Of a DNA stretch of 32,000 nt, positions 9,786 through 28,292 are shown in pieces. Under the pieces are notes generated by a model that saw only the letters and a list, made by a program, of their open reading frames with translations, was not told the DNA's origin and ran no database searches. Both the position numbers and the translations under genes were made by a program. The stretch lies in assembly GCA_025839675.1 (NCBI GenBank), contig CP104013.1, positions 3,780,001 through 3,812,000 on the forward strand, given 5' to 3'. Within the stretch, counting starts at the first letter, position 1. Every line of letters starts with the position of its first letter. The DNA comes from Candidatus Lokiarchaeum ossiferum (GTDB lineage: Archaea; Asgardarchaeota; Lokiarchaeia; Sigyniarchaeales; Promethearchaeaceae).

Positions 9786-10259
9786 TTATTTATTTTTTTT
9801 AAAGGGATTTGGTCCTATTTTTTTAAGAATCTTGACATACTCATGAACAATTTCAGTCAGTTCTGCACCTTCACTTGCAGAAATATGTCTTAACCAAACT
9901 CTGTTTGGATTAATTCCAAATTGTTGGATATACTTAGAAATCATTGGAATCCGACGCACCGTTTTGTGATTTCCATTAACATAATGACAATCACCAATGT
10001 GACACGCTCCAACTAATACTCCATCGACTCCTCTTTTCAGAGCAGCTAGCACCATTGCAGGTTCTACTCGGCCTGAACACATTACTCGCATTACACGTAA
10101 ATTTGCGGGTCGTTGCATTCGAGAGGTTCCCGCTTGATCACAGCCTGTATATGTACACCAATTACAAAAAATCCCCAAAATGAAAGGTTCAAAATCATTA
10201 TTCAATGCTGGATCACTATCTGAAACTGTCTCCAAGTTTTTCCCTATTGTGTCGGTCAT
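9786..10259 (-). CDS. mvhD: MvhD/FlpD-type hydrogenase iron-sulfur subunit (delta subunit of methyl-viologen-reducing hydrogenase family)
   Basis: Signature FCNWCTYTGCDQAG, then MCSGRVEP and GACHIGDCHY. Starts 1 nt after the hdrA stop. Confidence 0.85.
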   Translation of the reverse strand: MTDTIGKNLETVSDSDPALNNDFEPFILGIFCNWCTYTGCDQAGTSRMQRPANLRVMRVMCSGRVEPAMVLAALKRGVDGVLVGACHIGDCHYVNGNHKTVRRIPMISKYIQQFGINPNRVWLRHISASEGAELTEIVHEYVKILKKIGPNPFKKNK

Positions 10260-10260
10260 T

Positions 10261-12264
10261 TTAAGTATCTCCTAGAATAGAGTTAATAATAGCCATTAGT
10301 TGGGGGGTAGAAAAATGATTCTGGGTTATAGCATTGCTTGGACAAGTACTAACACAAGTACCACAACCTTTGCATTTAATGCTATTTATTTCTGCTTTGT
10401 TTATTGATTGATTAAACGATATTGCTCCAAATGGGCATTGTTCGATACAGGAACGGCATCCCGAGCATAATCCCGTTTCTACAAATGAATAATAGGGTTC
10501 CACTTCAATTTCCTGTTGAGCCATCAAGGAAGCTGCACTCGCTGCAGCAGCTTTTGCTTGAGCCACCGCATCTGGAATATCCTTAGGGCCTTGAGCAGCT
10601 CCTGCCATAAAAATACCCTCAGTCAAACTATCAACCGGTCGCAATTTTGGATGAGCTTCCAAAAAAAACCCATCTGCTGAACGTTGAATGGTAAGCTGCG
10701 TACTCAGCTGTTCTGCATCATATCTCGATTCCAGACCAACGGATAGAACCACCATATCTACTTGAATTTCGAGGGGTTTTCCAAATAAAGTATCTTCTCC
10801 TCGGATTATTATTGATTTATTCTCTGGATTTTCTGCTAACTCTGATACTCTTCCACGAATGAATTTTATTCGATAATCTCGGGAAGCACTTTCGTAAAAC
10901 TCTTCATATCCTTTTCCAAAAGCGCGAATATCTATATAAAAGATATAAATCTCCGCTTCTGGATGTTTTTCTTTATATTGACGAGCTTGTTTAATTGCAT
11001 ATAAACAACACACACGGCTGCAATAGGGGTGACAGCCTGCTCGTGTATCTCGGCTTCCCACACATTGAATCCATGCTATAGAGTGAGGTGCTTTATTATC
11101 GGAAGGTCGGGCAGGTTTTCCCAATGTGGGTCCTGTGCTACTAAGAAGACGTTCCATTTGAAGTCCATTAATCACATTTTCATATTTGCCATATCCATAA
11201 TTGTGCAAGTATTGCGGATTAATTACATCGTAACCCGTCGTTACAATGATTGTTCCAACATCGAGGTCTAATATATTATCGTTATCATCAAAGTTAATTG
11301 CTCCAGGCTCGCAAACATCTGGTCGAGAACAAATTCCGCAGTGAATACAATGGTTGAGATCAATCGTATATTTTCCCGGCACCGCTTGAGGAAATGGTAT
11401 ATAAATGGCTTTACGGGCATTCATTCCCAGATCAAATTCATTTCCTATCGAAACGGGGCAGTATTGGACACAAGCTCCACATCCAGTGCATTTTTCCTGA
11501 TTAACATAATGGGCTTTTTGCCGAATAGAAACTCTGAAATTGCCGACATATCCATCGATTTTTTCAACTTCTGAGTATGATAAGATTTTAACTTGTGGAT
11601 TTCGGGAGATTTCAACCATCTTAGGTGTTAAAATACATGCAGAGCAATCCATTGTTGGAAATGTTTTATCAAGTTGTGCCATATGTCCTCCTATCGAGAG
11701 ATCTCGTTCCACGAGGTAGACTTGGTAACCTTGAATTGCCAATTCAAGTGCGGAAAATATTCCCGAAATTCCTGCTCCAATAACAAGGCACGATGGCAAA
11801 ACTTTAACCTTTTGTGGGTATAGCGCTTTTAGTGCAGCTGCTTTTCCAATTTGCATGCGTAAATGGTCTTTTGCAATCCGTGTTGCTCCAGGAACATCAT
11901 ACATATGAACCCAAGTCGCATGTTCTCGAATGTTGGCTTGAACAAAATAGTAAGGATTTAATCCTGCTGAAGCCAACACTTGACGAAAGGTTGGTTCGTG
12001 CATTCGCGGACTACATGCTGCAACTACTACTCGATTGACTAAATCATCTTGTATATCTGATTTAATCATATTTTGTCCCACTTCAGAACAAAAAAATTTG
12101 TATTGGCGAGCGACAGAAACAAAGGGCAGTGTTTTTACAAATTCAACTAAGAGATCAACATTAATAACGCCCCCAATGTTCAAACCGCAATGACAGATAT
12201 ATACTCCAATTTTTATCTCCTTCTGAGTAAAATCTTTCTGAGCAGATTTCTTCTTCGACAACAC
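10261..12264 (-). CDS. hdrA: Heterodisulfide reductase subunit A (Cys-type HdrA, FAD plus multiple [4Fe-4S])
   Basis: N-terminal IGVYICHCGLNIGG and VVVAACSPRMHEP. FAD fold VIGAGISGIFSALELAIQG. TFPTMDCSACILTPKM. Inserted and C-terminal ferredoxin motifs (CTGCGACVQYCP, CSGCRSCIEQCP, CKGCGTCVSTCP). Confidence 0.92.
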   Translation of the reverse strand: MLSKKKSAQKDFTQKEIKIGVYICHCGLNIGGVINVDLLVEFVKTLPFVSVARQYKFFCSEVGQNMIKSDIQDDLVNRVVVAACSPRMHEPTFRQVLASAGLNPYYFVQANIREHATWVHMYDVPGATRIAKDHLRMQIGKAAALKALYPQKVKVLPSCLVIGAGISGIFSALELAIQGYQVYLVERDLSIGGHMAQLDKTFPTMDCSACILTPKMVEISRNPQVKILSYSEVEKIDGYVGNFRVSIRQKAHYVNQEKCTGCGACVQYCPVSIGNEFDLGMNARKAIYIPFPQAVPGKYTIDLNHCIHCGICSRPDVCEPGAINFDDNDNILDLDVGTIIVTTGYDVINPQYLHNYGYGKYENVINGLQMERLLSSTGPTLGKPARPSDNKAPHSIAWIQCVGSRDTRAGCHPYCSRVCCLYAIKQARQYKEKHPEAEIYIFYIDIRAFGKGYEEFYESASRDYRIKFIRGRVSELAENPENKSIIIRGEDTLFGKPLEIQVDMVVLSVGLESRYDAEQLSTQLTIQRSADGFFLEAHPKLRPVDSLTEGIFMAGAAQGPKDIPDAVAQAKAAAASAASLMAQQEIEVEPYYSFVETGLCSGCRSCIEQCPFGAISFNQSINKAEINSIKCKGCGTCVSTCPSNAITQNHFSTPQLMAIINSILGDT

Positions 12265-12364
12265 ATATAAATGTTGAAGTAGACGTTAATAAATGTTCAA
12301 TTACCTTACTGTTAAATAAATAAAGTTCGATCAATAATTTTCCCATTTTGGAGGACACACAAAT
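12265..12364. promoter_or_regulatory. Divergent promoter region between hdrA (Cys-type) and the HdrD-like/NuoEFG-like operon
   Basis: 100-bp AT-rich spacer with TATA-like boxes (CATATAAAT 12264-12272; TTAAATAAATAA 12312-12323). A GGAGG SD-like box at 12350-12354 sits 10 nt before TTG 12365. Confidence 0.4.
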
Positions 12365-13600
12365 TTGATTCATAACATTTCTTCGCTTGATTTAAAAAAA
12401 CTGCTTGATATATCGATCTATTGTTATACGTGCAATGCGTGTAGTATGGTATGTCCTCTAAATCTGGTAAAAGATTTTTCTCCTCGCTATTTCTTATCCC
12501 AATTGAGGTTAAACGGGTTAAAAGATATGGATTCTTTTTTAGCTGATAATGAAGATATCTATAAGTGCATCACTTGCCAACAGTGTATGACAGAATGTCC
12601 AATGTCTAAACCAGGTGAAGGGATGAATATCGTAGAGATTATCCGTATTTTACGGGAATACTCATTCGAAAATAAGCTCAATGCGAAAGAACTTCAACAA
12701 CATTGTACCCATCAGTCAATGATGCAACTAAATTCCACTCTCCATAGTCAATCCGCATCAGTTATTAATCGCATTGATTATATTAGGTCCGATCCTTCAC
12801 TAAAATTTACTGATACAGGTGAAATTGGTTTGTTCTTAGGATGTTTTCAATTTATGGAAGATCTGTTTGAAATACCTAATCGTGAATTTACTGATATCGC
12901 CCGAGGTGCTATAAAGCTTTTAAATCAAAATGATATTGTCCCTGTTATATTAGAAACAAAGTGTTGCGGCCATGATCTATATTGGATGGGAGATACAAAC
13001 AATACAAAAAGATTAGCCGAATTCAATGTGCAAAAATTTAAAGACGCGGGAGTCAAAACCATCATTACAGAATGTGCTGAAGGATACTACATGTGGAAAT
13101 ATGTGTACCCCAAATTGGTGATTGAATGTGATTTTAAAGTCATCCATTTCAGTGAATATATTATCCAGAGCGAGTTACTCAAAAAAATGTTTATGCATCC
13201 ATTAAAAATGAAGGTTACCTATCATGATCCATGCCGTCTTGGACGCTTAAGTAATATATTTGAACCTCCACGACAAATTTTATCCATTCTACCCGGAATT
13301 ACCTATTTAGAAATGAAACACAATCGCACTACCTCATTATGTTGTGGTGTATCAGCCTTTCTTGATTGTAATGCAGAAAAGAAAGTGTTCAGAGAGCTTC
13401 GAATACAAGAAGCAATGGATATAGGTGCAGATTATATCGTCACTACTTGCCCAAAATGTATTGTTCATTATAATTGTTATCTGAAAGAAGTATCCACAAA
13501 TATTCAAAATAGCCAGAATCCCAATGACCAAGATTCAAGACCATTGCCCAAATTGATCGACTTATCTACTTTCCTCGCCAAATATTTTATGTTAATATGA
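12365..13600 (+). CDS. HdrD-like (fused HdrC/HdrB-type) Fe-S protein: 2x[4Fe-4S] ferredoxin domain plus two CCG cysteine-rich domains
   Basis: CYTCNACSMVCP and CITCQQCMTECP at the N-terminus. CCG domains: LGC...KCCGHD and HDPCRLGR...SLCCGVSA...TTCPKC. The TTG start is supported by the upstream GGAGG. Confidence 0.8.
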   Translation: MIHNISSLDLKKLLDISIYCYTCNACSMVCPLNLVKDFSPRYFLSQLRLNGLKDMDSFLADNEDIYKCITCQQCMTECPMSKPGEGMNIVEIIRILREYSFENKLNAKELQQHCTHQSMMQLNSTLHSQSASVINRIDYIRSDPSLKFTDTGEIGLFLGCFQFMEDLFEIPNREFTDIARGAIKLLNQNDIVPVILETKCCGHDLYWMGDTNNTKRLAEFNVQKFKDAGVKTIITECAEGYYMWKYVYPKLVIECDFKVIHFSEYIIQSELLKKMFMHPLKMKVTYHDPCRLGRLSNIFEPPRQILSILPGITYLEMKHNRTTSLCCGVSAFLDCNAEKKVFRELRIQEAMDIGADYIVTTCPKCIVHYNCYLKEVSTNIQNSQNPNDQDSRPLPKLIDLSTFLAKYFMLI

Positions 13601-13643
13601 TCAAATCACCAAGAAATCCCTAAAAAACCACGGAGCTAAACAA

Positions 13644-14156
13644 ATGAGTCCCCAAGAAAAACCAAAGACAATAACTAAGCCAGGTATTGATACATCAAAA
13701 GTTGAAAAAATCATTCAAAATTATATAGAGAACAATGGAAATGCGCTGACAATTTTGCAATCCGTCCAAGAATCTTTTGGTTATTTACCCTTCGAAGTTA
13801 TTGAACATATTTCCGAAAGAATTGGCATTCCCCTTGGAAAAATGTATGGTATTGCCACATTTTATGCCCAATTCAAATTTCATCGAAGAGGCAAATATAT
13901 TATTCAAATTTGTGATGGAACGGCTTGTCATGTTAAGGGATCAATGTTATTGGAAGAATTCATTACTAAAGAATTAGGGATTAAACCCACAGAAACTACC
14001 TCGGATAATTTGTTTTCTTTGGAAAAAGTGGCCTGTTTTGGATGTTGTGCAATTGCTCCAGTTGTTTTCATTAATAAAGATGTCTATGGCAATCTAACAC
14101 CAGCAAAATTAAAGAAAATTTTTAAAAAATATCGTAGAATGGAGGCCACTCCTTGA
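13644..14156 (+). CDS. nuoE: NuoE/HydC-like thioredoxin-fold [2Fe-2S] subunit
   Basis: CDGTACHVKG ... CFGCCAIAP. GGAG box 8 nt upstream of the ATG. Stop TGA at 14154-14156 overlaps the next gene's TTG start. Confidence 0.85.
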   Translation: MSPQEKPKTITKPGIDTSKVEKIIQNYIENNGNALTILQSVQESFGYLPFEVIEHISERIGIPLGKMYGIATFYAQFKFHRRGKYIIQICDGTACHVKGSMLLEEFITKELGIKPTETTSDNLFSLEKVACFGCCAIAPVVFINKDVYGNLTPAKLKKIFKKYRRMEATP

Positions 14157-15967
14157 AAAAGCAGAAGATTGAAATTATAGTGTGTTGCAGCACAGGTTGT
14201 AATTCCCTTGGGGGGCAAGAAATATATGAAGAATTAGAAAAATGTATTAAAGACTACAAACTCGACAAACATGTGAAAGTTAAACCCACTGGTTGCCATG
14301 GATTCTGCCAAACAGGTCCTAGGATGTTGATCAATCCAGAAGGTGTGCTGTATGTATATCTAAAAAAAACTGATGTTAAAAAAATCATTGAACAACATCT
14401 CATTGGGGGTAAAATCGTTGAAGAACTCACGTACAAAGATCCTGTGACAAAAAAAACCGTCCAAAAACGAGATGATATCAATTTTTACAAGTATCAAGTA
14501 TCAATAACAACAAAAAATTGTGGTAAAATTAATCCTGAAGACATCAACGATTATTTAGCTGTTGGAGGGTACGAATCCCTAAAAAAGATACTTCAAATGA
14601 AACCAGATCAAGTTATTAAAGAAGTCTCAACCTCACGACTTAGGGGAAAGGGAGGGGCTGGATTTCCAACAGGAACAAAGTGGTCCTTTCTTGCTCAAGA
14701 AGCAAATACTCCAAAGTACTTGATATGTAACGGTGATGAAGGAGATCCTGGTGCATTTATGGATCGCACAATTATGGAAAGTGATCCTCAATCGGTGATT
14801 GAGGGAATGCTTATAGGTGCGTATGCAACCGGAGCTTCTTCTGGATTTGTGTATGTTCGAGCAGAAAAACCCCTTGCCGCCTCTCGGATGGCGAAAGCTA
14901 TTGAACAAGCTCAAGAACACGGTTTTTTAGGCTCTAATATACTAAATTCTGGGCTGGATTTTGATCTTCAGATTAGAAAAGGGGCTGGTGCATTCGTATG
15001 TGGAGAAGAAACCGCTCTTATGAGTTCCATTTTAGGAAATAGAGGTAGTCCGCGCCCACGCCCACCATATCCCGCTAATTCTGGATTATGGGGTAAACCT
15101 ACAAATATTAACAATGTGAAAACTTGGGCGACTATTCCGAAAATTTTTGCCATGGGGGCAGAGAATTATGCAAAAATTGGAACTGCAGATTCATCGGGAA
15201 CTGCTATTTTGTGTCTCTCGGGGAATATCAACAACGCGGGATTAATAGAAATTCCAATGGGTACCACTATCCGCAGAGTTGTTTATGATATTGGTGGGGG
15301 GTGTCCCAATGGAAAAAAATTTAAGGCGATACAAATTGGAGGACCATCCGGGGGATGCATTCCAGAACAATATCTCGATGTGGAAATGATCGATACACAA
15401 ATTGATTTCAAATCGATCACTTCTTTAGGTGCAATCATGGGTAGTGGTGGGTTAATTGTCCTTGATGAGTCTACTTGCTTAGTTGATATGGCCCGCTATT
15501 TTATCCAGTTCACTCAAAATGAATCCTGTGGAAAATGTGTCCCGTGTCGTATAGGTACACGCAAGATGCTTCGTATTCTCGATAGAATCGTCACGGGGCA
15601 AGGCTCTTATGAAGATTTAGATGAATTAGAATCTTTGGCATATACTATTAAAAATGCCAGTTTATGCGGCTTGGGGCAAACGGCTCCAAATCCCATTATT
15701 AGTACTCTTAAATATTTCCGTGATGAATACGAAGCCCATATTAAAGGAATATGTCCTGCTTTAGTGTGTAAAAATTTGATTACTTATCACATTTCTGATG
15801 AAAATTGTATCGGATGCGGATTATGTGCCAAAAATTGTCCAGTAAATGCAATTCAAGGGGAATTGAAGAAGAAATTCCACATTGATACTAATCTCTGCAT
15901 TAAATGCGGATTGTGTTTTAGTTCCTGTCATAATAATGCAATCTATAAAAAAACAGGGGGAAAGTAG
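14153..15967 (+). CDS. nuoF: NuoF/HydB-like NAD(H)- and FMN-binding flavoprotein with an extra N-terminal [2Fe-2S] domain and a C-terminal 2x[4Fe-4S] domain
   Basis: LRGKGGAGFPTGTKW (FMN/NADH site), CGKCVPCRIG (N3 cluster), N-terminal CCSTGC...CHGFC, C-terminal CIGCGLCAKNCP and CIKCGLCFSSC. GGAGG lies 7 nt upstream of TTG 14153. Confidence 0.9.
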   Translation: MKKQKIEIIVCCSTGCNSLGGQEIYEELEKCIKDYKLDKHVKVKPTGCHGFCQTGPRMLINPEGVLYVYLKKTDVKKIIEQHLIGGKIVEELTYKDPVTKKTVQKRDDINFYKYQVSITTKNCGKINPEDINDYLAVGGYESLKKILQMKPDQVIKEVSTSRLRGKGGAGFPTGTKWSFLAQEANTPKYLICNGDEGDPGAFMDRTIMESDPQSVIEGMLIGAYATGASSGFVYVRAEKPLAASRMAKAIEQAQEHGFLGSNILNSGLDFDLQIRKGAGAFVCGEETALMSSILGNRGSPRPRPPYPANSGLWGKPTNINNVKTWATIPKIFAMGAENYAKIGTADSSGTAILCLSGNINNAGLIEIPMGTTIRRVVYDIGGGCPNGKKFKAIQIGGPSGGCIPEQYLDVEMIDTQIDFKSITSLGAIMGSGGLIVLDESTCLVDMARYFIQFTQNESCGKCVPCRIGTRKMLRILDRIVTGQGSYEDLDELESLAYTIKNASLCGLGQTAPNPIISTLKYFRDEYEAHIKGICPALVCKNLITYHISDENCIGCGLCAKNCPVNAIQGELKKKFHIDTNLCIKCGLCFSSCHNNAIYKKTGGK

Positions 15968-18886
15968 ATGGAAAATCAATCACTTATCATAGATGGGAAA
16001 GAAATCGAGTTTTTTAAAGGGGAAACTATCTTGATGGCTGCCGAGCGTGCAGGAATTTATATTCCTCGATTATGCTATATCGATGGAATGACCCCTTATG
16101 GTGGATGTCGCTTATGTATTGTTAAATTGGTCGGGGATCTTCGTCCAATTCAGCCTTCTTGTTCAACTCCTGCAAAAGCAGGAATGAATATTATTACAAT
16201 TGATGAAGAACTTCAACGTATGAGAAAAGATATTATACAATTGATGATCAGCGAACACCCGAATACTTGTCTGGTTTGTGGTCATAAAACGGTTTGCGAA
16301 GATTACCAAACTCAATTCAAAAAAAACCCCGAGAAACGGGTATTTGGCTGTTATAACTGCTCTCAAAAAAATAAGTGCGAGCTCCGAGAAATTATCGACT
16401 ACATCGGAGCGAGTGATTTGACTCAAGAATTTGAATATAAAAATTATGAAATTGAAAATTTGGACCCTTTTTTTGAAAGACATTATAATTTGTGTATCGT
16501 TTGTGGGAAATGCGTGCGAGTTTGTGGAGAACTGCGGGGAATCAATGCGATAGATTTTTTTGGTCGGGGACATGATCTCAGGATATCCACTCCAATGAAT
16601 ATGCTTCATATTGAAACTAACTGCCAATTTTGTGGGGCATGTGTAGATATCTGTCCTACCGGAGTCCTCGTCCCTTTAATGCAGACTTGGACACGAACAC
16701 GTGAGATTTTCACCAAATCGATTTGTGGACATTGCTCGATTGGCTGTGGTTTAAACTACTACATGGAAAATGAAGAACTTGTGGAAACTATTCCGAACAA
16801 AAGCGCAAAGATCAATAAGGGTCAAGCGTGTGTTTTTGGACGGTTTTGCATTCCTGTTTTTAATAGGCGAAATGAAACTCAGTTTCACACTCCTTTGATT
16901 CGTTCTGACAATATTCTAAAACCAGTCATGTACAATGAAGCATATTCCACTTGTATCACGATGCTTCGGAAATATTCTCCCGATGAAATTGCAGTGCTAG
17001 CATCTCCAGACCTATCAAATGAGAGTGCTTTTATTTTAAATCAATTTGCATCAAAAGTATTAAAAACATCCAATATAGCAACCATTTGTGATAACAATTG
17101 CTTAGAAAATTTTCAATTATTAACAGCGATTCCTCGATCACTTGATCATATTCCAAAATCTGATTGGATTTTATTGGTTGATGCAAATCCTCAAGTATCC
17201 CACCCTCTCATTTTAATTGATATAAAGAAGGCTAAGGATCTCAATAAGACGATAGTAAGCTTAAAACATTCGCCATTGAAAATTGCGCCAGAAACAAAAT
17301 GGTTGCTGGATGAAGAGTTGCTATTATCAGAAGATAGTCTAATTTCTAAGCTTAGTGAATTTCAAGAAGGAATTGGGAGTATTCTGGTCGGACCTCAAAC
17401 AACATCAAATATTTTCATTAGTCTAATCAATCTTTGCCTTAAAAACCCGAATATTAATTTGATTCCATTACGATCTCGAGCCAATTTGGATGGCGTTTTC
17501 CAATTTATCCCTCAAACAGAAGATCTTGTATACAATGCCATAAAGGAAAAAAAAATTAAAGTATTGCTAACCACTGAAAGAATCTCCCCCACATTGGCCA
17601 AATATGTGGAGAACATCATTTTATTAGATATTTTTCCCTCGGATTTTTCCAATAAAGCGAATATTATTTTTCCAGTTACGACATTTCCCGAATCATCAGG
17701 AACTCTTACGAATATTGAATTTGACAACCAACGATTTTATGCAAGCGTTACACCCTTTCGCGATGCAAAACCCGATTGGCAAATCATTTGTGAACTTGCT
17801 CAACAAATGAAGACAGAAGGGTTTAATTATACCAATGTGCAGGATATTATGGAAAATTTACCCATGATCCCAAGTGTTCAAATTACTGATCTAAATCTTC
17901 TCCTCCTAAAAAAAATGTCCCTCCAATATGGAAAACCAATCAGTTGGGATGATTTTGTCTATAGAGGAGAGAAAATTTCAAATCGTGTTCCAGATTTGAA
18001 GAAAATCATTGAATATCGAAAAACAAAGAATCCGGAGTTAATTGCTGGAGTCCTAACTGCAAGTCAGGATGAAACAACTGGTTTAATTGAGATAGAAATT
18101 GATGGGAAAGGTATGGTGAAGGTTGGGACGCAATTCTTCGGGTTGGATTCTATTAAATCAATCATAAAAATTGCGCATCTTTCAAATTATCGTTTGAAAA
18201 TTATCGTTGATGCATCTAATCCTAATTTCAGATATGTAGATCGCCATAAATTTTGTATGTGCAACAATTACAAAGCAAATTTGAACGAATCTCATATTTT
18301 AATTGATTTTGCTCCATCGTTGTGTGATATGTATCTTCGAATTCCCCAAGAAGGGGATGAAATCCTAAAGAGTGTGGATGGACTTATTATGGTTGATAGT
18401 AGATACACAAACATTACTGAAGAAGAATATCACGAATTTGTTCAAATTGGCGATAGTAAAACCAAAATGCAAGAGCGAGCACTGCATCGAGCCCATCAAC
18501 TTCTCAAAGATGAATCTATCTATTATTCATTGAATCATATTCAGACCCAAGAAAAATCGATGCTTCGACCAACATGGGGCGTTTGGAATAAAAAAGTGCC
18601 GGAATATAAAGAAACAACTTCTTCTATAATACAACAAACTCAAAAAGTAGTCCTTGTTGATCAAGATTTATGCATGGGATGCAGAACTTGCGAGAAATAT
18701 TGTAAACACGAAGCAATTTCGTATGTGTTGATCAACCAAGATGTTGGAATATTTAAGGGAAAAGAAATGCAAAAAGCAACCATCGATGGCACAAAATGTT
18801 ATAACTGTTCGAAATGTATTTCCCACTGTCCAGTAAATGCCATATATATTCGTGAATGGCCGGTAGAAGAAACATCCTTGAAATAA
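15968..18886 (+). CDS. NuoG/HydA-N-terminal-like multi-Fe-S subunit with a degenerate molybdopterin-oxidoreductase-like domain, an unassigned ~200-aa region and a terminal 2x[4Fe-4S] ferredoxin domain
   Basis: [2Fe-2S] N-terminus (IIDGKEIEFFKGETILMAAERAGIYIPRLCY...GGCRLCIV). EHPNTCLVCGHKTVCE, then a second CYNCSQKNKCEL. CIVCGKCVRVC and CQFCGACVDICP. MopB-type CGHCSIGCG...KGQACVFGRF. No Cys/Sec-His active-site motif (ICDNNCLENF at the corresponding place) and no H-cluster motifs. C-terminus CMGCRTCEKYC and CYNCSKCISHCP. Confidence 0.8.
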   Translation: MENQSLIIDGKEIEFFKGETILMAAERAGIYIPRLCYIDGMTPYGGCRLCIVKLVGDLRPIQPSCSTPAKAGMNIITIDEELQRMRKDIIQLMISEHPNTCLVCGHKTVCEDYQTQFKKNPEKRVFGCYNCSQKNKCELREIIDYIGASDLTQEFEYKNYEIENLDPFFERHYNLCIVCGKCVRVCGELRGINAIDFFGRGHDLRISTPMNMLHIETNCQFCGACVDICPTGVLVPLMQTWTRTREIFTKSICGHCSIGCGLNYYMENEELVETIPNKSAKINKGQACVFGRFCIPVFNRRNETQFHTPLIRSDNILKPVMYNEAYSTCITMLRKYSPDEIAVLASPDLSNESAFILNQFASKVLKTSNIATICDNNCLENFQLLTAIPRSLDHIPKSDWILLVDANPQVSHPLILIDIKKAKDLNKTIVSLKHSPLKIAPETKWLLDEELLLSEDSLISKLSEFQEGIGSILVGPQTTSNIFISLINLCLKNPNINLIPLRSRANLDGVFQFIPQTEDLVYNAIKEKKIKVLLTTERISPTLAKYVENIILLDIFPSDFSNKANIIFPVTTFPESSGTLTNIEFDNQRFYASVTPFRDAKPDWQIICELAQQMKTEGFNYTNVQDIMENLPMIPSVQITDLNLLLLKKMSLQYGKPISWDDFVYRGEKISNRVPDLKKIIEYRKTKNPELIAGVLTASQDETTGLIEIEIDGKGMVKVGTQFFGLDSIKSIIKIAHLSNYRLKIIVDASNPNFRYVDRHKFCMCNNYKANLNESHILIDFAPSLCDMYLRIPQEGDEILKSVDGLIMVDSRYTNITEEEYHEFVQIGDSKTKMQERALHRAHQLLKDESIYYSLNHIQTQEKSMLRPTWGVWNKKVPEYKETTSSIIQQTQKVVLVDQDLCMGCRTCEKYCKHEAISYVLINQDVGIFKGKEMQKATIDGTKCYNCSKCISHCPVNAIYIREWPVEETSLK

Positions 18887-18894
18887 TGTAGTAG

Positions 18895-18902
18895 AAAAAA
18901 AA
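18895..18902 (-). terminator. Oligo-T (T8 on the minus strand) terminator candidate for the Sec-type hdrA transcript
   Basis: A8 on the plus strand equals U8 in the minus-strand transcript, 8 nt after the 3'-UTR hairpin. Confidence 0.45.
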
Positions 18903-18910
18903 GAGTTTGG

Positions 18911-18982
18911 CAATTAGCTTCATCGTTGCAAGATGCATCATGTTTACTCGAAGTTTTTAGTAAACGGTCATCTGACTAATTG
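18911..18982 (-). promoter_or_regulatory. Candidate SECIS-like (kink-turn) RNA element in the 3' UTR of the Sec-type hdrA
   Basis: Minus-strand RNA: CAAUUAG-UCAG-AUGA-CC-GUUUACU-[AAAAACUUCG]-AGUAAAC-AUGAUG-(CAUC-UUGCAAC-GAUG)-AAG-CUAAUUG. It has an outer 7-bp helix and an inner 7-bp helix. AUGA faces UGAU, giving U.U, G.A and A.G pairs. The apical loop is A-rich. It starts 67 nt after the stop codon. Confidence 0.5.
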
Positions 18983-18990
18983 TTCATTTA

Positions 18991-18996
18991 TTTTTT
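18991..18996 (+). terminator. Oligo-T (T6) terminator candidate for the NuoG-like gene transcript
   Basis: T6 on the plus strand, about 105 nt after the stop at 18884-18886 and just beyond the same palindromic structure. Confidence 0.35.
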
Positions 18997-19049
18997 GCAA
19001 GTGGTGGTGTAGAGGTAGTTTTGTTGAGATTTGATAAAGAATTTCTTCT

Positions 19050-21026
19050 TTATCGCAGAGCATTGACCAAAATTCCATCGATTAAATCGTTGTAATGTTC
19101 TCCTCGATAATATCTAAGAGTGATCGCTTCATTCGCGCACACAGATGCACATAAACCACATCCTCGACAGATAATGTTATCCACAATCGCTCCTTGTTCA
19201 AGATCGATCGTGATGGCTTGATATGGGCACGTTGCAGCGCACATACCGCATCCAGAACATTTCTCTGTATCAGTAATTGCTCGAATTAAATCGATTCGAT
19301 ATTCTCTATTGGCTAACAATTTACACATTGATGAAGATGCGCCTTTAGCTTGCATAATCGATTCTGAGATGTCTTTAGGACCATGACAAGCTCCTGCTAG
19401 AACGATTCCGGGAACATCTGTGTCAACTGTATTTAATCGCTGATGGAATTCTTTCAAAAATCCATTCGAACTTAATTGCAACCCAAGCAATTCATTCAAG
19501 GAGGCAAAGGATTTAGAGGGAACCATTGAAGTTGACAGAACAATCATATCAAATTCGAATTTCTTGATTGTATTATTTGGATCCAGAGAATCTTCCATGA
19601 TCACAGTTAGTACTTTGGATTGGGGATCCTCCTCAATGGATACCACTTTGGTTCGAATAAAGTCAACCCTTGCTTTTCGTGCTTCAAGGTAGTATTCTTC
19701 ATAACCCTTTCCTGCGGCACGAATATCTATATAAGATACTACAACCTCCATCTCCGGATTGTGGGATTTAGCTAATTTTGCATTTTTGATTGAAACCATG
19801 CAGCAGACGCCCGAGGAACAATAAATATTTCTTTTCATATCCCGTGAACCAACACAGTTGATGAAAAGAATACTCTTTGGCGGTTGATTATCACTTGGCT
19901 TAACGAGATGACCAACTACCGGCCCGTTGGGGGCCAATAATCGTTCAAAGGTCACTTCCGTAATAACATTGTCATAAATCCCATAACCTAAATATCCTAT
20001 TTCGGGGATGAATTCATCCCATCCTGTAGCGACAATAACGCCCCCGAATTTCTTGGTTATTTTAGTTTCCGTTTGGTTGAAATCTATTGCTTTTAATTCA
20101 CATACATTCACACAGTTTCCACATTTGATACAGACTTTCATATCAATTTGTGCTTTTGAGGGAACGGCTTGTGCAAATGAGATGTAAATTGCTTTTCGTG
20201 GATCCATTCCTTGGTTAAATTCACAAGCACCAATTGTAGGGCACACTTCAAAGCAAGCACCGCATCCATTGCAATCTTGAGTCGTATATCGAGGTTTTTG
20301 AGTGATTTCCACTTCAAAGTTTCCAACATATCCACTAAACTTAGTTATTTCAGCAAATGTATACATTTCAATGTTTTTGTTCCGTTGGGCTTCCAACATT
20401 AACGGACCCAAAATTCAGATAGAGCAATCATCAGTGGGAAATGTTCTGTCAAGCATCGCCATCTTCCCCCCAATTGTAGGTTTTTCTTCTACTAAACACA
20501 CTCGAATTCCTTGATTGCCTAAATCTAGCGCTGATTGCAAACCTGCGACTCCACCTCCTATCACTAAAACTGAATCTGTGATTGGAACTATAAGTTCAGG
20601 GATATTTTCAAGTTTGTGGGCTCGAGAAACACCTGCAGAGATTAAATCCTTCGCTTTTTCCATTGCTGCATCTTTAGTCTTTCGATGCACAAAGCTACAG
20701 TGTTCTCGGAGATTTATAAATTCTAAAAACGCTGTATCTATGCCTATCTCATCTAAAACGGCTCTAAACACGGGTTCATGTGTTTTAGGTGTACAAGCGG
20801 CAACAACAATTCGATTTAAGTGAAAATCATCCACATTCTTTTTGATGAAATCTGCCCCCCCAGTCGTGCACATTGATAAATATTCATCTGCCATCATAAC
20901 ATTTGGTAAATTCTTAGCATAGTTGGCGAGTGTGGCACAATCAAGTATCTCTGCAATATTAATGCCTCAACGACAAATAAACACACCTATACGAATTTCT
21001 TGCTCTTCCAAAGGTAATGTTGACAT
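19050..21026 (-). CDS. hdrA: Heterodisulfide reductase subunit A, selenocysteine-containing (two in-frame UGA/Sec codons); merges ORF-track entries 19050-20411 and 20415-20897 with an unlisted 5' segment 20970-21026
   Basis: One continuous frame from ATG 21024-21026 (GGTG box 5 nt upstream; in-frame TGA then non-coding sequence further upstream) to TAA 19050-19052. It is colinear with the Cys-type HdrA over its whole length. RIGVFICR-U-GINI matches KIGVYICH-C-GLNI, and FPTDDCSI-U-ILGPLM matches FPTMDCSA-C-ILTPKM. Confidence 0.85.
20415..20417 (-). other. In-frame UGA, predicted selenocysteine codon 2 of hdrA (FAD-domain DCSxC/U motif)
   Basis: Plus-strand TCA is TGA on the minus strand. Flanked by ...GAT GAT TGC TCT ATC TGA ATT TTG GGT CCG..., i.e. 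DDCSI-U-ILGP. Confidence 0.8.
20967..20969 (-). other. In-frame UGA, predicted selenocysteine codon 1 of hdrA (N-terminal CxCG motif)
   Basis: Plus-strand TCA is TGA on the minus strand. Context GVFICR-U-GINIAEILD aligns with GVYICH-C-GLNIGGVIN in the paralog. Confidence 0.75.
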
Positions 21027-21192
21027 TCATAGCACCATGAATTTTTCATTTTCAATCATTCTCAAAGGTGAAGTTTACTTCTTTCGCTTGTGCGACCAAT
21101 GTGTGAAGTATATTCATCTCATTTCATTGAATTACAAAAATGATTTTTATTCACAATATTGATATACTCTCACTGAAAAGGTTTTTAAATAT
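21027..21192. promoter_or_regulatory. Divergent promoter region between Sec-type hdrA and the TPR-hdrB/polyferredoxin/hdrC operon
   Basis: 166-bp AT-rich spacer with TATA-like TTTTTAAATAT (21182-21192). Contains two TGAAGT motifs that also occur in the other hdr divergent spacer. Confidence 0.35.
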
Positions 21193-23007
21193 TTGGATAG
21201 AAAGTATAAACTGTTACAATTCCTCACAAACGAAGTTGATCAGCAGATGACTTTTACCCCCCTTGAAGCCCGGAGTTATTACCAACATCTAATTAATCAA
21301 GATCCACAAGATCCAAGCGGATATCTTGGGATGGGTGATCTTGCGTTTTATGGTGGTTTTTATCAAGAAGCTATCTCATATTTTACTCAAGCAATTAATT
21401 GTGACTCCCAAAATTTTGCCAGTTGGGTCGGTTTAACAAAAATTTTTCTACATTATAATAGTATTCAACAAGCAGAAGAATGTCTCATCGAGGCTTTGAA
21501 TGTAGATCCTATAAACCATGAAGCTCTGATTCTCGCAACGATAATTAAAATCCGCTTAAATGAATATGCTAAAGGATTAGATTTCCTTGATAAAATTGGG
21601 GAAGACAATGAAAGCCCTTATGATTCGCTATCTCTATATTTGCGTGGATATATCGCATGTTTGCTTGGTGATTTTGAAGATGGGTTAGAACATTTAAAAT
21701 CTTGCGAGGTGTTGCCTCCCTTTAATGATAAAACCAACTCAAATTATCAAATTTTGTGGAATAATTTGGGGGTCGCAAATTTTCGGTTTAAGAGATTTAC
21801 GGAAGCCGAAAATTATTTACAGAATATCACTCAAAAATTTCCTTTATGTGATTCCATTTCGTGGCTAAATCTCGCCATGGTTTATTGGGCTCAAGACAAA
21901 ATCGATCAAAGTATCATAATATTCGAAAAAATCCAATCTTTACAACCAAAACTATGGCCCTGGTTAAAAGAAACCAAAGAATATCGCAGTCGGGGTCAAG
22001 AATGGTTACACGAAGCGATTCAAAATTTGCAAACCGAATCTACAATTTACAATGTTGGATTGTATTTAGGCTGCGTGATTCCTAATCGATATCCTTTTAT
22101 TGAGGCTGCTACTCGTCATGTATTTGATACTTTAAATATAGGTGTCGTAGATCTTGAAGGTGCATCTTGTTGTCCCGCTCCGGGGGTATTTCGATCATTT
22201 GATATTGAAACTTGGTTGACATTGGGTGCCCGAAATATTACAATAAGCGAACAATTGCAACGAGATCTCGTAACCATGTGTAATGGGTGCTATGGAACGT
22301 TGAATGATGTGAATTATGAACTTAAAACGGATTCAGAAAAACGAACGCTTGTAAATGATAATTTGAATAAAGTAGATCGTGAATTCCAAGGATCCATTAA
22401 CGTCCGTCATATTATTGATGTACTTTTTAATGAAATTGGTCTTGACGCACTCAAAAAACGAATTACGCATCCATTGACACTTAGAGTGGCTGTTCATTAT
22501 GGGTGTCATCTCCTAAAACCGATGAAAACTAAACCTTGGACCGAAGATTGGGAAGAGCCGACGTTTTTTGATGATTTGGTGGAAATTACGGGGGTTACGT
22601 CAGTTCCCTATAAGGAAAAAATGATGTGTTGCGGGGCTGGAGGTGGAGTTCGGGGTGCCTTGAAAGAAATTTCATTGGATTTTACCCGAGAAAAATTAAT
22701 CCACATGCGAGATGCAGGGATTGATGCCATTGTGGTATGCTGTCCATTCTGTCATCTCCAATTTGACATTGGCCAATTGGAAGTAAATAATATCTTCAAG
22801 AAACAAATTCGAGATCCCTTTAACATTCCCGTAATTTATATCACTCAATTACTCGGGTTAGCAATGGGATTTGATCCCTTTCGAATGGGCTTGCTAAAAA
22901 CACCGCAAGAAAAAGGAGTTCCCCCCATGAATAAATTTGAACTTCTCTTCACAAAATATAAACCATTAGATCTTCACAATACATCACTGTTTTTGCCCAG
23001 GACTTGA
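21193..23007 (+). CDS. hdrB: TPR-repeat domain fused to heterodisulfide reductase subunit B (two CCG domains)
   Basis: Residues from about 286 to the end are colinear with canonical HdrB: LYLGCVIPNRYPFIEAATR, LEGASCCPAPGVF, NGCYGTL, VAVHYGCHLLKP, KMMCCGAGGGVR, CCPFCHLQFD. Residues 1 to about 285 are called TPR-like by eye from Tyr/Ala/Leu-rich stretches (e.g. GYLGMGDLAFYGGFYQEAISYFTQAINCD); the repeat register was not verified. Start is TTG 21193 or ATG 21247. Stop TGA at 23005-23007. Confidence 0.85.
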   Translation: MDRKYKLLQFLTNEVDQQMTFTPLEARSYYQHLINQDPQDPSGYLGMGDLAFYGGFYQEAISYFTQAINCDSQNFASWVGLTKIFLHYNSIQQAEECLIEALNVDPINHEALILATIIKIRLNEYAKGLDFLDKIGEDNESPYDSLSLYLRGYIACLLGDFEDGLEHLKSCEVLPPFNDKTNSNYQILWNNLGVANFRFKRFTEAENYLQNITQKFPLCDSISWLNLAMVYWAQDKIDQSIIIFEKIQSLQPKLWPWLKETKEYRSRGQEWLHEAIQNLQTESTIYNVGLYLGCVIPNRYPFIEAATRHVFDTLNIGVVDLEGASCCPAPGVFRSFDIETWLTLGARNITISEQLQRDLVTMCNGCYGTLNDVNYELKTDSEKRTLVNDNLNKVDREFQGSINVRHIIDVLFNEIGLDALKKRITHPLTLRVAVHYGCHLLKPMKTKPWTEDWEEPTFFDDLVEITGVTSVPYKEKMMCCGAGGGVRGALKEISLDFTREKLIHMRDAGIDAIVVCCPFCHLQFDIGQLEVNNIFKKQIRDPFNIPVIYITQLLGLAMGFDPFRMGLLKTPQEKGVPPMNKFELLFTKYKPLDLHNTSLFLPRT

Positions 23008-23014
23008 AATCACT

Positions 23015-23776
23015 ATGTTCCCAAAACTCATAAAGCATGTTAGCTATACTCAAATCAGATTAGAGCAAAAATTTGTTGGTAGAAATGTTGAACTAATCAT
23101 CGATCGTTTACGATGTGTAGGCTGTGGTATTTGCAGTCGTGTTTGTCCTCAAGATGCGATTTCGATTGGTCCTAAGGTTACTTCCTATGGAAAAGAAAAG
23201 CAATTTGATGAAAAACTAATTGATAATTCAATTGATGAAGATAAATGTGTTTTTTGTGGTACCTGCAGCATTTTATGTCCATTTGATGCTCTTCACTTAT
23301 TTAAAGATGGTAAAAAAGTTGAACCAGCTGAAAACACTTTAGTGACAAAACAAGCGATACCAAAATTAGAAATACAGTATCTTCCCATGACTCGTATTAA
23401 TCAAACCGCAATGGTTTATTGGGAAGGTGAAATAAAAACGAACTTCGAATTTCCTACCTCAGAAAAAGAATTTCACCAGCATTACATCAATAAATGTCCG
23501 GGTGATTGTAGAAAATGCTTAAAAATTTGTCCTAATGAAGCCATTTCATTTCTTCCTGCTGAAAATGCATGGAAATCCAAAAAAATAATTGAAATCGATA
23601 ACACAAAGTGTATCAAGTGTAGAGCCTGTTCAATAGTTTGTCCACAAAGTATTTTCGAAGTGAAATGGACAAAAATTCATTTTTTGGGACCAGTTAATGA
23701 ATGTTTCTGGACTCCTCTAGTCAATAAGCTTCTAAAAGTAAATTCTTCATTAACCGGACAGAAAGAACTGTCTTAG
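23015..23776 (+). CDS. Polyferredoxin-like protein with four [4Fe-4S]-type Cys motifs
   Basis: CVGCGICSRVCP, CVFCGTCSILCP, CPGDCRKCLKICP (non-standard spacing), CIKCRACSIVCP. Confidence 0.8.
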   Translation: MFPKLIKHVSYTQIRLEQKFVGRNVELIIDRLRCVGCGICSRVCPQDAISIGPKVTSYGKEKQFDEKLIDNSIDEDKCVFCGTCSILCPFDALHLFKDGKKVEPAENTLVTKQAIPKLEIQYLPMTRINQTAMVYWEGEIKTNFEFPTSEKEFHQHYINKCPGDCRKCLKICPNEAISFLPAENAWKSKKIIEIDNTKCIKCRACSIVCPQSIFEVKWTKIHFLGPVNECFWTPLVNKLLKVNSSLTGQKELS

Positions 23777-23787
23777 GTGTTTAAATT

Positions 23788-24339
23788 ATGGAATATTTAA
23801 AAAAAGATATAATTCAATCGTACAGGGGAAGTATTGAAGAAGAAATAATCAAAGATCACGCTTTGAAAGCAATTAATGCGTGTTTTCAATGTGGGACATG
23901 TAGTGGTGGATGTCCCTCGGGACGACGAACGGCCTTGGTTACTCGAAAAATTATTCGCAAAGCGATTTCGAATATGGAGGATGTGTTAAATGATAAGGAG
24001 ATTTGGATGTGCACAACGTGTTATACCTGTTTTGAGAGATGTCCCCGATCCGTACCAATCACTGACATCATAATCAAACTTCGCAATTTAGCCGTTAGGA
24101 AGGGTAATATGCTTGAATCACACAAGCAATTATCGCATGTTCTCATACAAACGGGTCATGGTGTGCCTCTTGGAAATGCTGACAATCAATGGGCTAAATT
24201 GCGTATGTCCTGTGGATTATCTCCTCTGCCCCCAACCACCCATATGCACCCCGAAGCTATTGAAGAAATTGCTATTCTGGTAAAAAAAACTCACTTTGAT
24301 AAATTAGTTGGCTATCCTCGAATAATTACTACGGACTAA
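23788..24339 (+). CDS. hdrC: Heterodisulfide reductase subunit C (2x[4Fe-4S])
   Basis: CFQCGTCSGGCPSGR and CTTCYTCFERCPRSV in a protein of typical HdrC size (183 aa). An AGGTG SD-like box lies 8 nt upstream. Confidence 0.85.
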   Translation: MEYLKKDIIQSYRGSIEEEIIKDHALKAINACFQCGTCSGGCPSGRRTALVTRKIIRKAISNMEDVLNDKEIWMCTTCYTCFERCPRSVPITDIIIKLRNLAVRKGNMLESHKQLSHVLIQTGHGVPLGNADNQWAKLRMSCGLSPLPPTTHMHPEAIEEIAILVKKTHFDKLVGYPRIITTD

Positions 24340-27437: not shown

Positions 27438-28292
27438 TTAGACACTTCCCAAAAATAAAGTTAGATATTGGAACAGAATGGCGGTTTTGAGAAGGGAATT
27501 CACAGTCATTTTATATTTTTCACCCAGATCAATTTTCCAAATGACAAGGATCGCAATAGCCATTAGTAAAACGGTTATTAACATCCCGAACAAGAAGAGG
27601 AAAGGATTGGGTAAATTGAGAAATTCGGTCACTACCATACATACAATCGACACGGCCAGATAAATCATGACATGGACCTGAAGTCTATGAGGTCCAAGTT
27701 GAGCAATGAATTTCGCATCATCCTCATGGGCCGTTGGTAAAAGTTTGAATTTTTTGATGACATCTTTCGAAAACTGCAGCCCAAAGGTGGCTAGAACTAA
27801 CAAATATACAAAAGCGGGGATTATTACTCCACCTAAGGATGCACCATACAACAATCCAAATGCGGGAAGAATACTATTCCACAAGGGTTGCAGTAAGCTT
27901 TGATATTTCCACGTTTTTCCATAGTTGATAATCATACTTTCAATTACTCCGACAAGGAGCACTGTAAAAATCGGAATGAAACCTAAATTGTAACGAATCG
28001 CATGAACAATAGAAAAAGTAATTGCTGCTATGAAGGCAACTCCGCTAACTATTAGATATTGGATGGCTTCTTTAAATTTCGCTTCTGGTTTTCCTACAAT
28101 CCGTAGTATTAGGGAACTGAAAGTCCCACTAATCGCCACTAAAAAGAAAATCAGAGGTCCAAAAATCAGATTGGCTCGAACCCGTCCCGCTCCTACCAAA
28201 TACCGGGTAAGAATGATCCCGAAAACTACCATAATCGCGCTTTTAACCCATGTCCCTGGGCGAATTGTATTGTGAAATGTTTTATATTCCAT
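27438..28292 (-). CDS. Polytopic membrane protein, unknown function
   Basis: 284 aa with about 8 hydrophobic segments. No Asp-rich prenyltransferase motifs. Lies 10 bp downstream of the 702-aa gene on the same strand. Confidence 0.7.
   Translation of the reverse strand: MEYKTFHNTIRPGTWVKSAIMVVFGIILTRYLVGAGRVRANLIFGPLIFFLVAISGTFSSLILRIVGKPEAKFKEAIQYLIVSGVAFIAAITFSIVHAIRYNLGFIPIFTVLLVGVIESMIINYGKTWKYQSLLQPLWNSILPAFGLLYGASLGGVIIPAFVYLLVLATFGLQFSKDVIKKFKLLPTAHEDDAKFIAQLGPHRLQVHVMIYLAVSIVCMVVTEFLNLPNPFLFLFGMLITVLLMAIAILVIWKIDLGEKYKMTVNSLLKTAILFQYLTLFLGSV

Follow-up and report, generated by a model that had tools for sequence, protein, structure and literature searches.

Which electron donor feeds the heterodisulfide reductase (Hdr) genes of an archaeon that is not a methanogen? 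This question is raised by a 32-kb stretch of the Candidatus Lokiarchaeum ossiferum genome (contig CP104013.1, positions 3,780,001 to 3,812,000; hereafter the window), in which ten contiguous genes at 9786-24339 encode two HdrA proteins, an HdrD-like protein, HdrB, HdrC, MvhD and a polyferredoxin together with NuoE-, NuoF- and NuoG-like subunits, here called BfuC, BfuB and BfuA. The reading that we favour, with a probability of about 0.5, is a two-module, NADH- and ferredoxin-linked Hdr complex that would resemble the BamDEFGHI part of class II benzoyl-CoA reductase (BCRII) without its tungsten subunits. The architecture has a solved bacterial precedent, and the functional proposals made below are those of comparative genomics.

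All ten genes read in the first-pass annotation of this DNA were present at their coordinates, with strong family matches in the open reading frame (ORF) listing and the Pfam and NCBIfam scans. Two selenocysteines, an RNA element resembling a selenocysteine insertion sequence (SECIS), a tetratricopeptide repeat (TPR) fusion and a degenerate molybdenum cofactor (MoCo) domain had been overlooked in that annotation. The features are listed below in window coordinates; FAD and FMN denote flavin adenine dinucleotide and flavin mononucleotide, UTR the untranslated region, and CCG the cysteine-rich domain of the Pfam family of that name.

9786..10259, - strand: mvhD, 157 aa, an MvhD/FlpD-type [2Fe-2S] adaptor (PF02662 full length, E=8e-45), with a TAA stop.
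10261..12264, - strand: hdrA1, 667 aa, a canonical Cys-type HdrA with FAD and two ferredoxin domains, one inserted and one C-terminal.
12365..13600, + strand: hdrD-like, 411 aa, an HdrC-like 2x[4Fe-4S] region followed by two CCG domains (Pfam CCG, E=3e-23; Fer4_8).
13644..14156, + strand: bfuC (NuoE/HydC-like), 170 aa, a thioredoxin-like [2Fe-2S] subunit (PF01257, E=2e-49).
14153..15967, + strand: bfuB (NuoF/HydB-like), 604 aa, with an FMN/NADH site, an N-terminal [2Fe-2S], an N3-type [4Fe-4S] and a C-terminal 2x[4Fe-4S].
15968..18886, + strand: bfuA (NuoG-like), 972 aa, with a putative N-terminal iron-sulfur wire, a degenerate molybdopterin-like domain, an extension at aa ~632-885 and 2x[4Fe-4S] at aa 894-960.
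18911..18982, - strand: a predicted SECIS-like RNA element of 72 nt in the hdrA2 3'UTR, recognized by comparison with orthologues.
19050..21026, - strand: hdrA2, 658 aa, a predicted two-selenocysteine HdrA, with TGA codons at 20967-20969 (Sec20) and 20415-20417 (Sec204).
21193..23007, + strand: TPR-hdrB fusion, 604 aa, a canonical HdrB preceded by TPR repeats (Pfam TPR families; CCG, E=2e-33).
23015..23776, + strand: polyferredoxin, 253 aa, with four CxxCxxCxxxCP motifs (Pfam Fer4 families).
23788..24339, + strand: hdrC, 183 aa (Pfam Fer4_8; TIGR03290).

The hdrD-like gene is the first of the bfu operon, hdrD-like-bfuC-bfuB-bfuA, which spans 12365-18886. The tight junctions and Shine-Dalgarno boxes reported earlier were borne out: the hdrA1 stop and the mvhD start are separated by a 1-nt gap (10259/10261), bfuC and bfuB overlap by 4 nt (14153-14156), the TAG of bfuB abuts the ATG of bfuA (15967/15968), and GGAGG-like boxes lie upstream of hdrD-like, bfuC, bfuB, bfuA and mvhD (GGAG in the last case). 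The hdrD-like start is a TTG at 12365, backed by its GGAGG box and by the orthologue alignment; gene callers chose a later ATG. Several public names in this region are misleading, as hdrD-like is labelled 'Dihydromethanophenazine:CoB-CoM heterodisulfide reductase subunit D', the polyferredoxin 'NAD(P)H-quinone oxidoreductase subunit I, chloroplastic' and BfuA 'Periplasmic nitrate reductase'. In agreement with the earlier reading, no [NiFe] or [FeFe] hydrogenase, FrhB or molybdopterin-binding formate dehydrogenase (FDH) domain was found in any ORF of at least 80 aa in the window. The cluster is bordered on both sides by unrelated genes on other strands, and this excludes a hydrogenase or FDH subunit co-transcribed from just beyond the window, which had been named as a possible objection. 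The TldD/PmbA flank also borders the locus of a 75%-identical relative.

The NADH module was identified by alignment and profile searches. BfuB was collinear from end to end with the HydB of a bifurcating [FeFe] hydrogenase (7q4v_B; residues 4-598 to 4-597, E=6e-222) and also aligned end to end with NiFe-HydB (7t2r_B) and NfnB (9n5u_B). All of its Cys/His motifs were aligned, namely those of the N-terminal [2Fe-2S], the N3-type cluster, the His/Cys site and both C-terminal [4Fe-4S] clusters, and the Pfam scan returned the NuoF FMN domain (E=1e-45), NADH_4Fe-4S (E=1e-35), a partial N-terminal 2Fe-2S_thioredx and a C-terminal 2x Fer4. BfuC passed the NCBIfam NuoE model NF005722 with a score of 142.4 (cut-off 141). 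It has been reported that the extra clusters of BfuB set bifurcating Bfu enzymes apart from non-bifurcating NuoF homologues (Schut et al. 2022). These results indicated that the NuoF-like protein is, judged from its sequence, a full-length HydB/BfuB, which upholds the HydB character proposed for it at first, and that BfuB, BfuC and BfuA together give the locus the sequence-defined features of the Bfu family. Like the [FeFe]-HydABC, [NiFe]-HydABCSL and NfnABC/StnABC members of that family, the locus has BfuB and BfuC with the full cofactor-binding set; unlike them, it has an HdrD-like CCG protein as the third module, and no H-cluster, NiFe, pterin or GltD site is present in L. ossiferum. A CCG or HdrD-like third module is not among the Bfu classes in Schut et al. 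2022, where neither 'CCG' nor 'HdrD' occurs.

The NuoG-like subunit BfuA decides whether the operon brings a catalyst of its own. The Pfam scan detected Fer2_4, the His-ligated cluster motif, Fer4_Nqo3 and Molybdop_Fe4S4, whose Cys/His residues were invariant in the family alignment. BfuA also matched Molybdopterin PF00384 (E=4e-23), its best PDB sequence match was R. capsulatus FdsA (E=3e-64), and annotations name some homologues formate dehydrogenase. Together with Molybdop_Fe4S4 and the GenBank name given above, these matches would fit a catalytic molybdo- or tungstopterin enzyme, with an NAD-linked FDH or nitrate reductase as the product of the operon. However, the FdsA match covered mainly residues 6-422 and then a short stretch, and the MoCo domain was shortened to ~115 residues vs ~230 in FdsA. 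The Mo-ligand site 'VCHSPT' of FdsA reads 'ICDNNC' in BfuA, and the Cys is replaced in homologues by T, A or L, mostly Thr, so the Cys-His active-site pair is not conserved. PF01568, the C-terminal molybdopterin dinucleotide-binding domain, was not found in BfuA by the Pfam scan, and the C-terminus consists instead of an unrelated extension and a ferredoxin domain. In addition, a signal peptide context is lacking, and the gene lies in a cytoplasmic iron-sulfur operon. The unconserved Mo ligand, the missing PF01568 and the shortened MoCo domain were taken to rule out an FDH or nitrate reductase, and a catalytic BfuA is given only the slightest chance. For the same three reasons, and in keeping with its resemblance to the non-catalytic HydA of NiFe-HydABCSL (7t2r_A, E=2e-52), BfuA is predicted to be an iron-sulfur conduit like that protein or NuoG.

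The extension of BfuA (aa ~632-885, window 17861-18622) is family-specific and contains invariant FCxCNNYK and YRGE motifs; its invariant residues include C763, C765 and Y768. No fold match in the PDB was obtained with its AlphaFold2 model (pLDDT 69.6). A profile search found the extension in only 18 cluster representatives among 1.84 billion, and the carriers were essentially all proteins of the BfuA type, with 965-1043 aa, or fragments of such proteins. A metagenome scan with the extension-domain profile gave no matches. The contig scan for BfuA-type patterns returned mostly generic NuoG/FdhA matches and few Asgard loci, the L. ossiferum genome not being returned. The C-terminal ferredoxin domain of BfuA was 41% identical to that on the GltD-like protein of another locus, L088.

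The contexts of BfuA and HdrD-like homologues were compared by means of Pfam gene tables and tblastn of the window proteins against 170 fetched loci. It was observed that hdrD-like stood in the same operon in 10 of the 10 loci with an inspectable extended BfuA or its operon (the window, L002, L082, L083, L084, L085, L087, L089, L167 and L172), across which identity fell to 40% for HdrD-like and to 36-39% for BfuA. Conversely, hdrD-like was absent from ~75 NuoEFG-like loci of bacteria and Thermoplasmatota, all of them without the BfuA extension. These results demonstrated that the conserved unit is hdrD-like-bfuC-bfuB-bfuA. Beside this unit, HdrA1 orthologues of 74-86% identity were found divergent to hdrD-like in L002, L087 and L172; a gene of the two-TGA HdrA2 type took the position of HdrA1 in L089, and another lay 8 kb away in L085. 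In every lineage with an unfused BfuB, an HdrA gene was found near the hdrD-like-bfu unit, mostly adjoining it. The order bfuA, hdrA2, TPR-hdrB-polyferredoxin-hdrC was maintained in L082 and L169, and most of the supercluster was conserved down to 58% BfuA identity. The unit of mvhD-hdrA plus hdrD-nuoEFG proposed in the first-pass annotation therefore held in part: the link between hdrD-like and nuoEFG was invariant and HdrA genes were neighbours in several lineages, but MvhD followed HdrA1 only in L. ossiferum.

This conservation bears on another account, in which the genes are merely co-located: HdrA1-MvhD and HdrA2-HdrB-HdrC would form a classical Mvh-Hdr complex with a group 3c [NiFe] hydrogenase encoded elsewhere, and the NuoEFG-like proteins would act in trans, for example with an [FeFe] hydrogenase or FDH. 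The closeness of HdrA1, HdrB and HdrC to methanogen proteins agrees with it. According to the literature, moreover, cultured Lokiarchaeia encode a group B [FeFe] hydrogenase, P. syntrophicum a group 3c [NiFe] hydrogenase, and Lokiarchaeota several hdrA-vhuD pairs. Nevertheless, mere co-location would leave unexplained the strict hdrD-like/bfu operon, the rare BfuA extension that was found only with hdrD-like, and a whole gene order kept to the identity given above; furthermore, none of the inspected Asgard loci had a hydrogenase or FDH gene next to it. We consider this account unlikely.

The HdrD-like protein is the candidate output of the unit, and its cysteines were compared in detail. Two cubane motifs and a complete CCG-2 (C290, C326, C327, C362 and C365) were invariant, and CCG-2 aligned with the second CCG domain of the HdrB in the window, both of whose motifs are complete. 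In CCG-1, only C160, C200, C201 and C237 were present, with CAEGY in place of CxxC, and this was invariant in 6 sequences. The pattern of a complete CCG protein, two CX31-39CCX35-36CXXC motifs, was thus not found in the HdrD-like protein. Its best NCBIfam model was TfrB, with a score of 140.8, far under the cut-off of 385. Because CCG-1 is incomplete and the best curated model lies so far below its cut-off, a canonical site of the CoM-S-S-CoB type in this protein appears doubtful. The 'disulfide-type substrate' once claimed for the CCG domains is therefore uncertain, since one motif is invariantly incomplete, as in BamD, which reduces the electron-transferring flavoprotein (ETF).

The partners of the wider HdrD-like family were informative. 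A metagenome scan with the HdrD-like profile did return matches. The family is large and essentially Asgard-specific. Rosetta-stone fusions of MvhD and HdrD-like were found (P0176 and P0258-260), and operons were observed with the orders hdrD-like-GltD/Fd-mvhD (L088), hdrD-like-hdrA-like-mvhD-frhB (L171) and GltD/Fd-mvhD-hdrA-like-hdrA-like-mvhD::hdrD-like (L170). These fusions and operons argue that HdrD-like proteins partner MvhD and HdrA. Because the family is fused to, or shares operons with, MvhD, HdrA and varied input modules, it is predicted to be the Asgard counterpart of HdrBC for HdrA/MvhD, with an input module that varies between FrhB, GltD and Bfu. The HdrA-like proteins of L170 (1112-7998) and L171 (9309-12422) have 1022-1272 aa and consist of duplicated or permuted HdrA units, which recall the fused dimer BamE; their genes share operons with genes for HdrD-like, MvhD, and FrhB or GltD-like proteins. 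A different arrangement was seen in L093, where an HdrC-GltD-HdrB triple fusion lies near frhB, vhuD and a split hdrA. This fusion has 931 aa (L093:7916-10711; also in L090-L092 and L094) and resembles NCBIfam NF045663, 'diclust_near_Sec', and the hdrA beside it is split by selenocysteine (Sec).

Enzymes that join a HydBC-type module to HdrA, MvhD and an HdrD-like protein have been classed as 'Bam-Bfu' (Schut et al. 2022), and the structure of BCRII was solved in a 2026 preprint. According to that preprint, BamGHI confurcates NADH and reduced ferredoxin, and the electrons reach the bifurcating FAD of BamE, which is HdrA-like, by way of BamI and of BamF, which is MvhD-like. The high-potential electron then reaches BamD, an HdrBC-fusion/HdrD-like protein whose distal non-cubane cluster is incomplete and which reduces ETF, not a heterodisulfide, and the low-potential electron reaches the tungsten subunits BamBC (2026 preprint). 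For each of BamD, E, F, G, H and I of the Geobacter metallireducens complex Bam[(BC)2DEFGHI]2, the locus had an equivalent at the domain level. Matched by domains and roles, BamG, BamH and BamI correspond to the HydC-, HydB- and NuoG-like proteins, BamF to the MvhD-like, BamE to the HdrA-type and BamD to the HdrD-like protein. One incomplete non-cubane site, in BamD and HdrD-like, and a selenocysteine in the Hdr-type part are common to both systems. The combination of HdrA-FAD with HydB-FMN that had been pointed out in this locus is accordingly present but not unprecedented, being the BamDEFGHI architecture of BCRII.

The locus also differs from BCRII in several respects. No BamB or BamC is present; AFOR_N, AFOR_C or a comparable domain was found neither in any window ORF nor beside the related loci with extended BfuA, and the AFOR gene of L083 lies ~7 kb away, not adjacent to the bfu operon. 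HdrA is a single canonical unit and not a fused, permuted dimer, the host is an archaeon, hdrD-like stands in an operon with the bfu genes instead of hdrA, and BfuA has its unique extension. BCRII chains were not among the matches of the PDB sequence searches with the window proteins. Because BamBC is absent, the gene arrangement is different and the BfuA extension is unique, the locus is not a BCRII, but it plausibly works like the electron-supply half of that enzyme.

HdrA1 was collinear with the HdrA of M. thermolithotrophicus (5odc_A; residues 15-667 to 2-653, E=2e-242). The HdrB part scored 393 on TIGR03288 (cut-off 345) and HdrC 196.6 on TIGR03290 (cut-off 160), and the best NCBIfam match of the polyferredoxin was FwdF, below the cut-off. 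As in the MvhADG-HdrABC complex of methanogens, HdrA1 and MvhD are collinear with their counterparts and HdrB and HdrC lie above the TIGRFAM equivalog cut-offs; unlike in that complex, there is no MvhA or MvhG in the window or the related loci, and the host is not a methanogen. Where the hydrogenase genes of a methanogen would sit, the locus has the NADH/ferredoxin module and the HdrD-like fusion protein. The N-terminus of HdrB consists of ~280 residues of TPR repeats, a fusion that is kept in L082 (602 aa) and L169 (605 aa), and the repeats may point to a partner protein or to a substrate that is bound to a protein. The genes for HdrA2 with its two Sec residues, TPR-HdrB, polyferredoxin and HdrC form a second set, of the canonical HdrABC type, conserved alongside the bfu unit.

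Although gene callers broke hdrA2 up into two or three ORFs, it is a single gene, with its ATG at 21026 and its TAA at 19050-19052. The TGA at 20415-20417 lies in FPTDDCSI-U-ILGP, where HdrA1 has Cys (DCSAC vs DCSIU), and the TGA at 20967-20969 lies in FICR-U-GINI, where the HdrA1 counterpart is CHCG vs CRUG. Both TGA codons were found at the same positions in orthologues that are 58-81% identical (L082, L085/L086 and L089). The 3'UTR contains a SECIS-like element with an AUGA...GA core, a stem of ~9 positions and an A-rich apical loop opening with AAAAA, followed by a T8 run. L082 and L169 share the element, whose base pairs change in a compensatory way at alignment columns 8/70 and 21/43 (three sequences compared), and it fits the published description of the lokiSECIS. 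The 72-nt element emerged only by orthologue comparison; the minimum free energy fold of the whole 160-nt hdrA2 3'UTR gave z=-0.37, and the Rfam scan matched no SECIS or other RNA family model. A mir-4766 match inside hdrA1 (E=0.69) was dismissed as chance. These results suggested that HdrA2 is a two-selenocysteine protein with a predicted SECIS-like element of its own. Lokiarchaeal Sec-HdrA proteins with a lokiSECIS have been described (Mariotti 2016; ISME J 2024), and in the published surveys hdrA and frhD are always paired, with one SECIS for both. HdrA2 resembles these proteins in the Sec at the canonical ~200 position, to which an N-terminal Sec is added, and in the AUGA_GA core and AAAAA loop of its 3'UTR; it differs from them in lacking a downstream vhuD/frhD and in having its own SECIS-like element.

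From the cofactor motifs, the lack of a Mo, NiFe or FeFe site, the operon structure, the conserved neighbourhood and the fusions described above, we infer that the proteins associate physically and that HdrA1, with or without MvhD, joins the complex, and we propose the following direction of electron flow and type of acceptor. BfuB and BfuC would bind NAD(H), through FMN, and ferredoxin. BfuA would act as an iron-sulfur wire, prolonged by the lineage-specific extension and ending in its 2x[4Fe-4S] domain, and HdrD-like would provide a third redox site with two cubanes, one complete CCG and one four-Cys CCG, binding BfuA probably through the extension and the C-terminal ferredoxin domain. In L. 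ossiferum and its relatives, the bfu unit would most likely be paired with the divergently encoded HdrA1 (plus MvhD) in the style of BamGHI-BamF-BamE-BamD. First, the Bfu module would accept electrons from NADH, possibly together with reduced ferredoxin; second, the electrons would pass via BfuA to the HdrA flavin; third, the flavin would split the pair, sending one electron through the CCG clusters of HdrD-like to a high-potential acceptor, either a disulfide or a carrier protein, and the other to ferredoxin or the polyferredoxin. Support for these two modules comes from BCRII, which gives a structural and enzymatic precedent for the path from HydBC-like through MvhD-like and HdrA-like to HdrD-like proteins.

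Several observations weigh against this mechanism. The hdrA1/mvhD pair is divergent from the bfu operon, and the two are therefore separate transcripts. MvhD was absent downstream of HdrA1 in L002 (3700-4300) and L172 (1-1400), so the hdrA1-mvhD pair is not conserved in the way that the adjacency of hdrA1 and hdrD-like is. In L083, L084 and L167, no HdrA or MvhD was found within the inspected flanks, and HdrA is consequently not an obligatory partner. Being very close to methanogen HdrA, HdrA1 could instead serve HdrBC and a hydrogenase encoded elsewhere. Finally, there would be no net gain if ferredoxin served Bfu as co-donor and HdrA as acceptor at the same time. This last difficulty could be avoided by another low-potential output such as the polyferredoxin, or if the four-subunit enzyme acted alone; a third way out, offered here as an idea only, is that one carrier, shared by both CCG sites of the locus, cycles between an NADH-linked reductase and a confurcating Hdr/hydrogenase.

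The four-subunit alternative deserves separate consideration. HdrD-like-BfuCBA would then be a self-contained Bfu enzyme that bifurcates at the BfuBC core, converting 2 NADH, oxidised ferredoxin and an oxidised high-potential acceptor at the CCG site to the reduced products, or the reverse, and the neighbouring Hdr genes would belong to separate complexes sharing a carrier or pathway with it, with no physical binding to the Bfu complex. The four-gene unit is indeed the only invariant part of the locus, being present in L083, L084 and L167 with neither HdrA nor MvhD nearby; the BfuA extension goes together with hdrD-like, not with hdrA; the neighbourhood can do without MvhD; and Bfu classes with high-potential third substrates are known (Schut 2022). 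On the other hand, HdrA recurs near the unit in all lineages with an unfused BfuB, and the wider family has the MvhD::HdrD-like fusions and the operons joining hdrD-like, hdrA and mvhD. The three HdrA-less loci themselves are also telling. In each of them, a GltD-like NAD(P)H/FAD module replaces the C-terminal 2x[4Fe-4S] domain of BfuB, giving a protein of ~1050 aa in total.

L083:13543-16689: GltD-fused BfuB.
L084:6842-10000: GltD-fused BfuB.
L167:5255-8413: GltD-fused BfuB.

Because the HdrA-less loci carry this extra flavoprotein module on BfuB, a second flavin module seems to be required, and we regard a self-contained enzyme as possible but rather improbable. A Zn-dependent alcohol dehydrogenase gene was observed directly upstream of the variant operon in L084 and L167.

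Among NADH-dependent systems, the two-module complex that we favour can be set beside FlxABCD-HdrABC of Desulfovibrio, which was reportedly proposed by Ramos et al. in 2015 as an NADH-dependent Hdr. The concept is the same, in that NADH feeds a bifurcation based on HdrA, from which ferredoxin and an acceptor of the disulfide type are reduced. The NADH entry is unrelated, FlxA being an FAD/NAD-binding protein whereas the locus has BfuBC with FMN. NuoEFG homologues that form separate bifurcating-like complexes in Asgard archaea were mentioned in a 2024 preprint on Asgard metabolism, a figure legend of which shows NuoEFG 'providing electrons' towards Mvh-Hdr in Lokiarchaeales. The general idea of a NuoEFG-to-Hdr connection is thus already in the literature, where it appears without the HdrD-like link, the Bam analogy or an analysis of this locus; no paper mentioning the locus tags NEF87_003193-003200 was found.

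A broader version of the favoured reading, which we advance tentatively and would not expect to hold in full, is a distinct, hydrogenase-free 'Hdr-Bfu' class in the Lokiarchaeum lineage. In such a class, HydBC-type confurcating and HdrA-type bifurcating modules would be arranged in series, as in BCRII, with an HdrD-like output. Together with the adjacent canonical set of two-Sec HdrA, TPR-HdrB and HdrC, the enzyme would cycle a thiol/disulfide or a protein carrier, and NADH and reduced ferredoxin would be funnelled to H2 or another sink.

The remaining ORFs of at least 80 aa in the window encode a CoA-enzyme activase/HGD-D protein, a NosD-like protein, a class II aldolase, a flavodoxin-ferredoxin protein, an alpha-amylase, the TldD/PmbA pair, a beta-lactamase-family protein and several proteins without a family match. 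Two of them are possible low-potential redox partners: a CoA-enzyme-activase-type protein (DUF2229 + HGD-D) at the left window edge (47-2323, + strand) and a flavodoxin-2x[4Fe-4S] fusion ~5 kb off the cluster (4205-5038, - strand). Four sizeable ORFs of 382, 284, 702 and 313 aa had no Pfam match (8596-9744, - strand; 27438-30411, - strand; 5140-6081, + strand); the 382-aa protein, directly downstream of mvhD, resembles a multi-pass membrane protein.

Asgard archaea are rich in Hdr genes, for which the literature speaks of an 'unidentified heterodisulfide'. The re-oxidation of NADH and ferredoxin in syntrophic Asgard fermenters is central to models of eukaryogenesis, and a conserved operon that joins an NADH/ferredoxin Bfu module to an HdrD-like protein, beside HdrA genes, is a concrete and testable candidate for the link. 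The host is a cultured Asgard archaeon, among the closest cultured relatives of eukaryotes, for which transcriptome and proteome data exist, and the cluster points to a candidate redox hub in it. For annotation, the 'periplasmic nitrate reductase' is corrected to a predicted iron-sulfur conduit and the split HdrA to a predicted two-Sec selenoprotein. For the enzymes, the locus would carry the recently solved principle of serial coupling between bifurcation modules over to archaea from a bacterial enzyme of aromatic degradation and would add a new class of third substrate to the Bfu family. If the 'Hdr-Bfu' proposal is true, it would supply the link that is missing between the oxidation of NADH and the enigmatic Hdr systems of Asgard archaea that are not methanogens.

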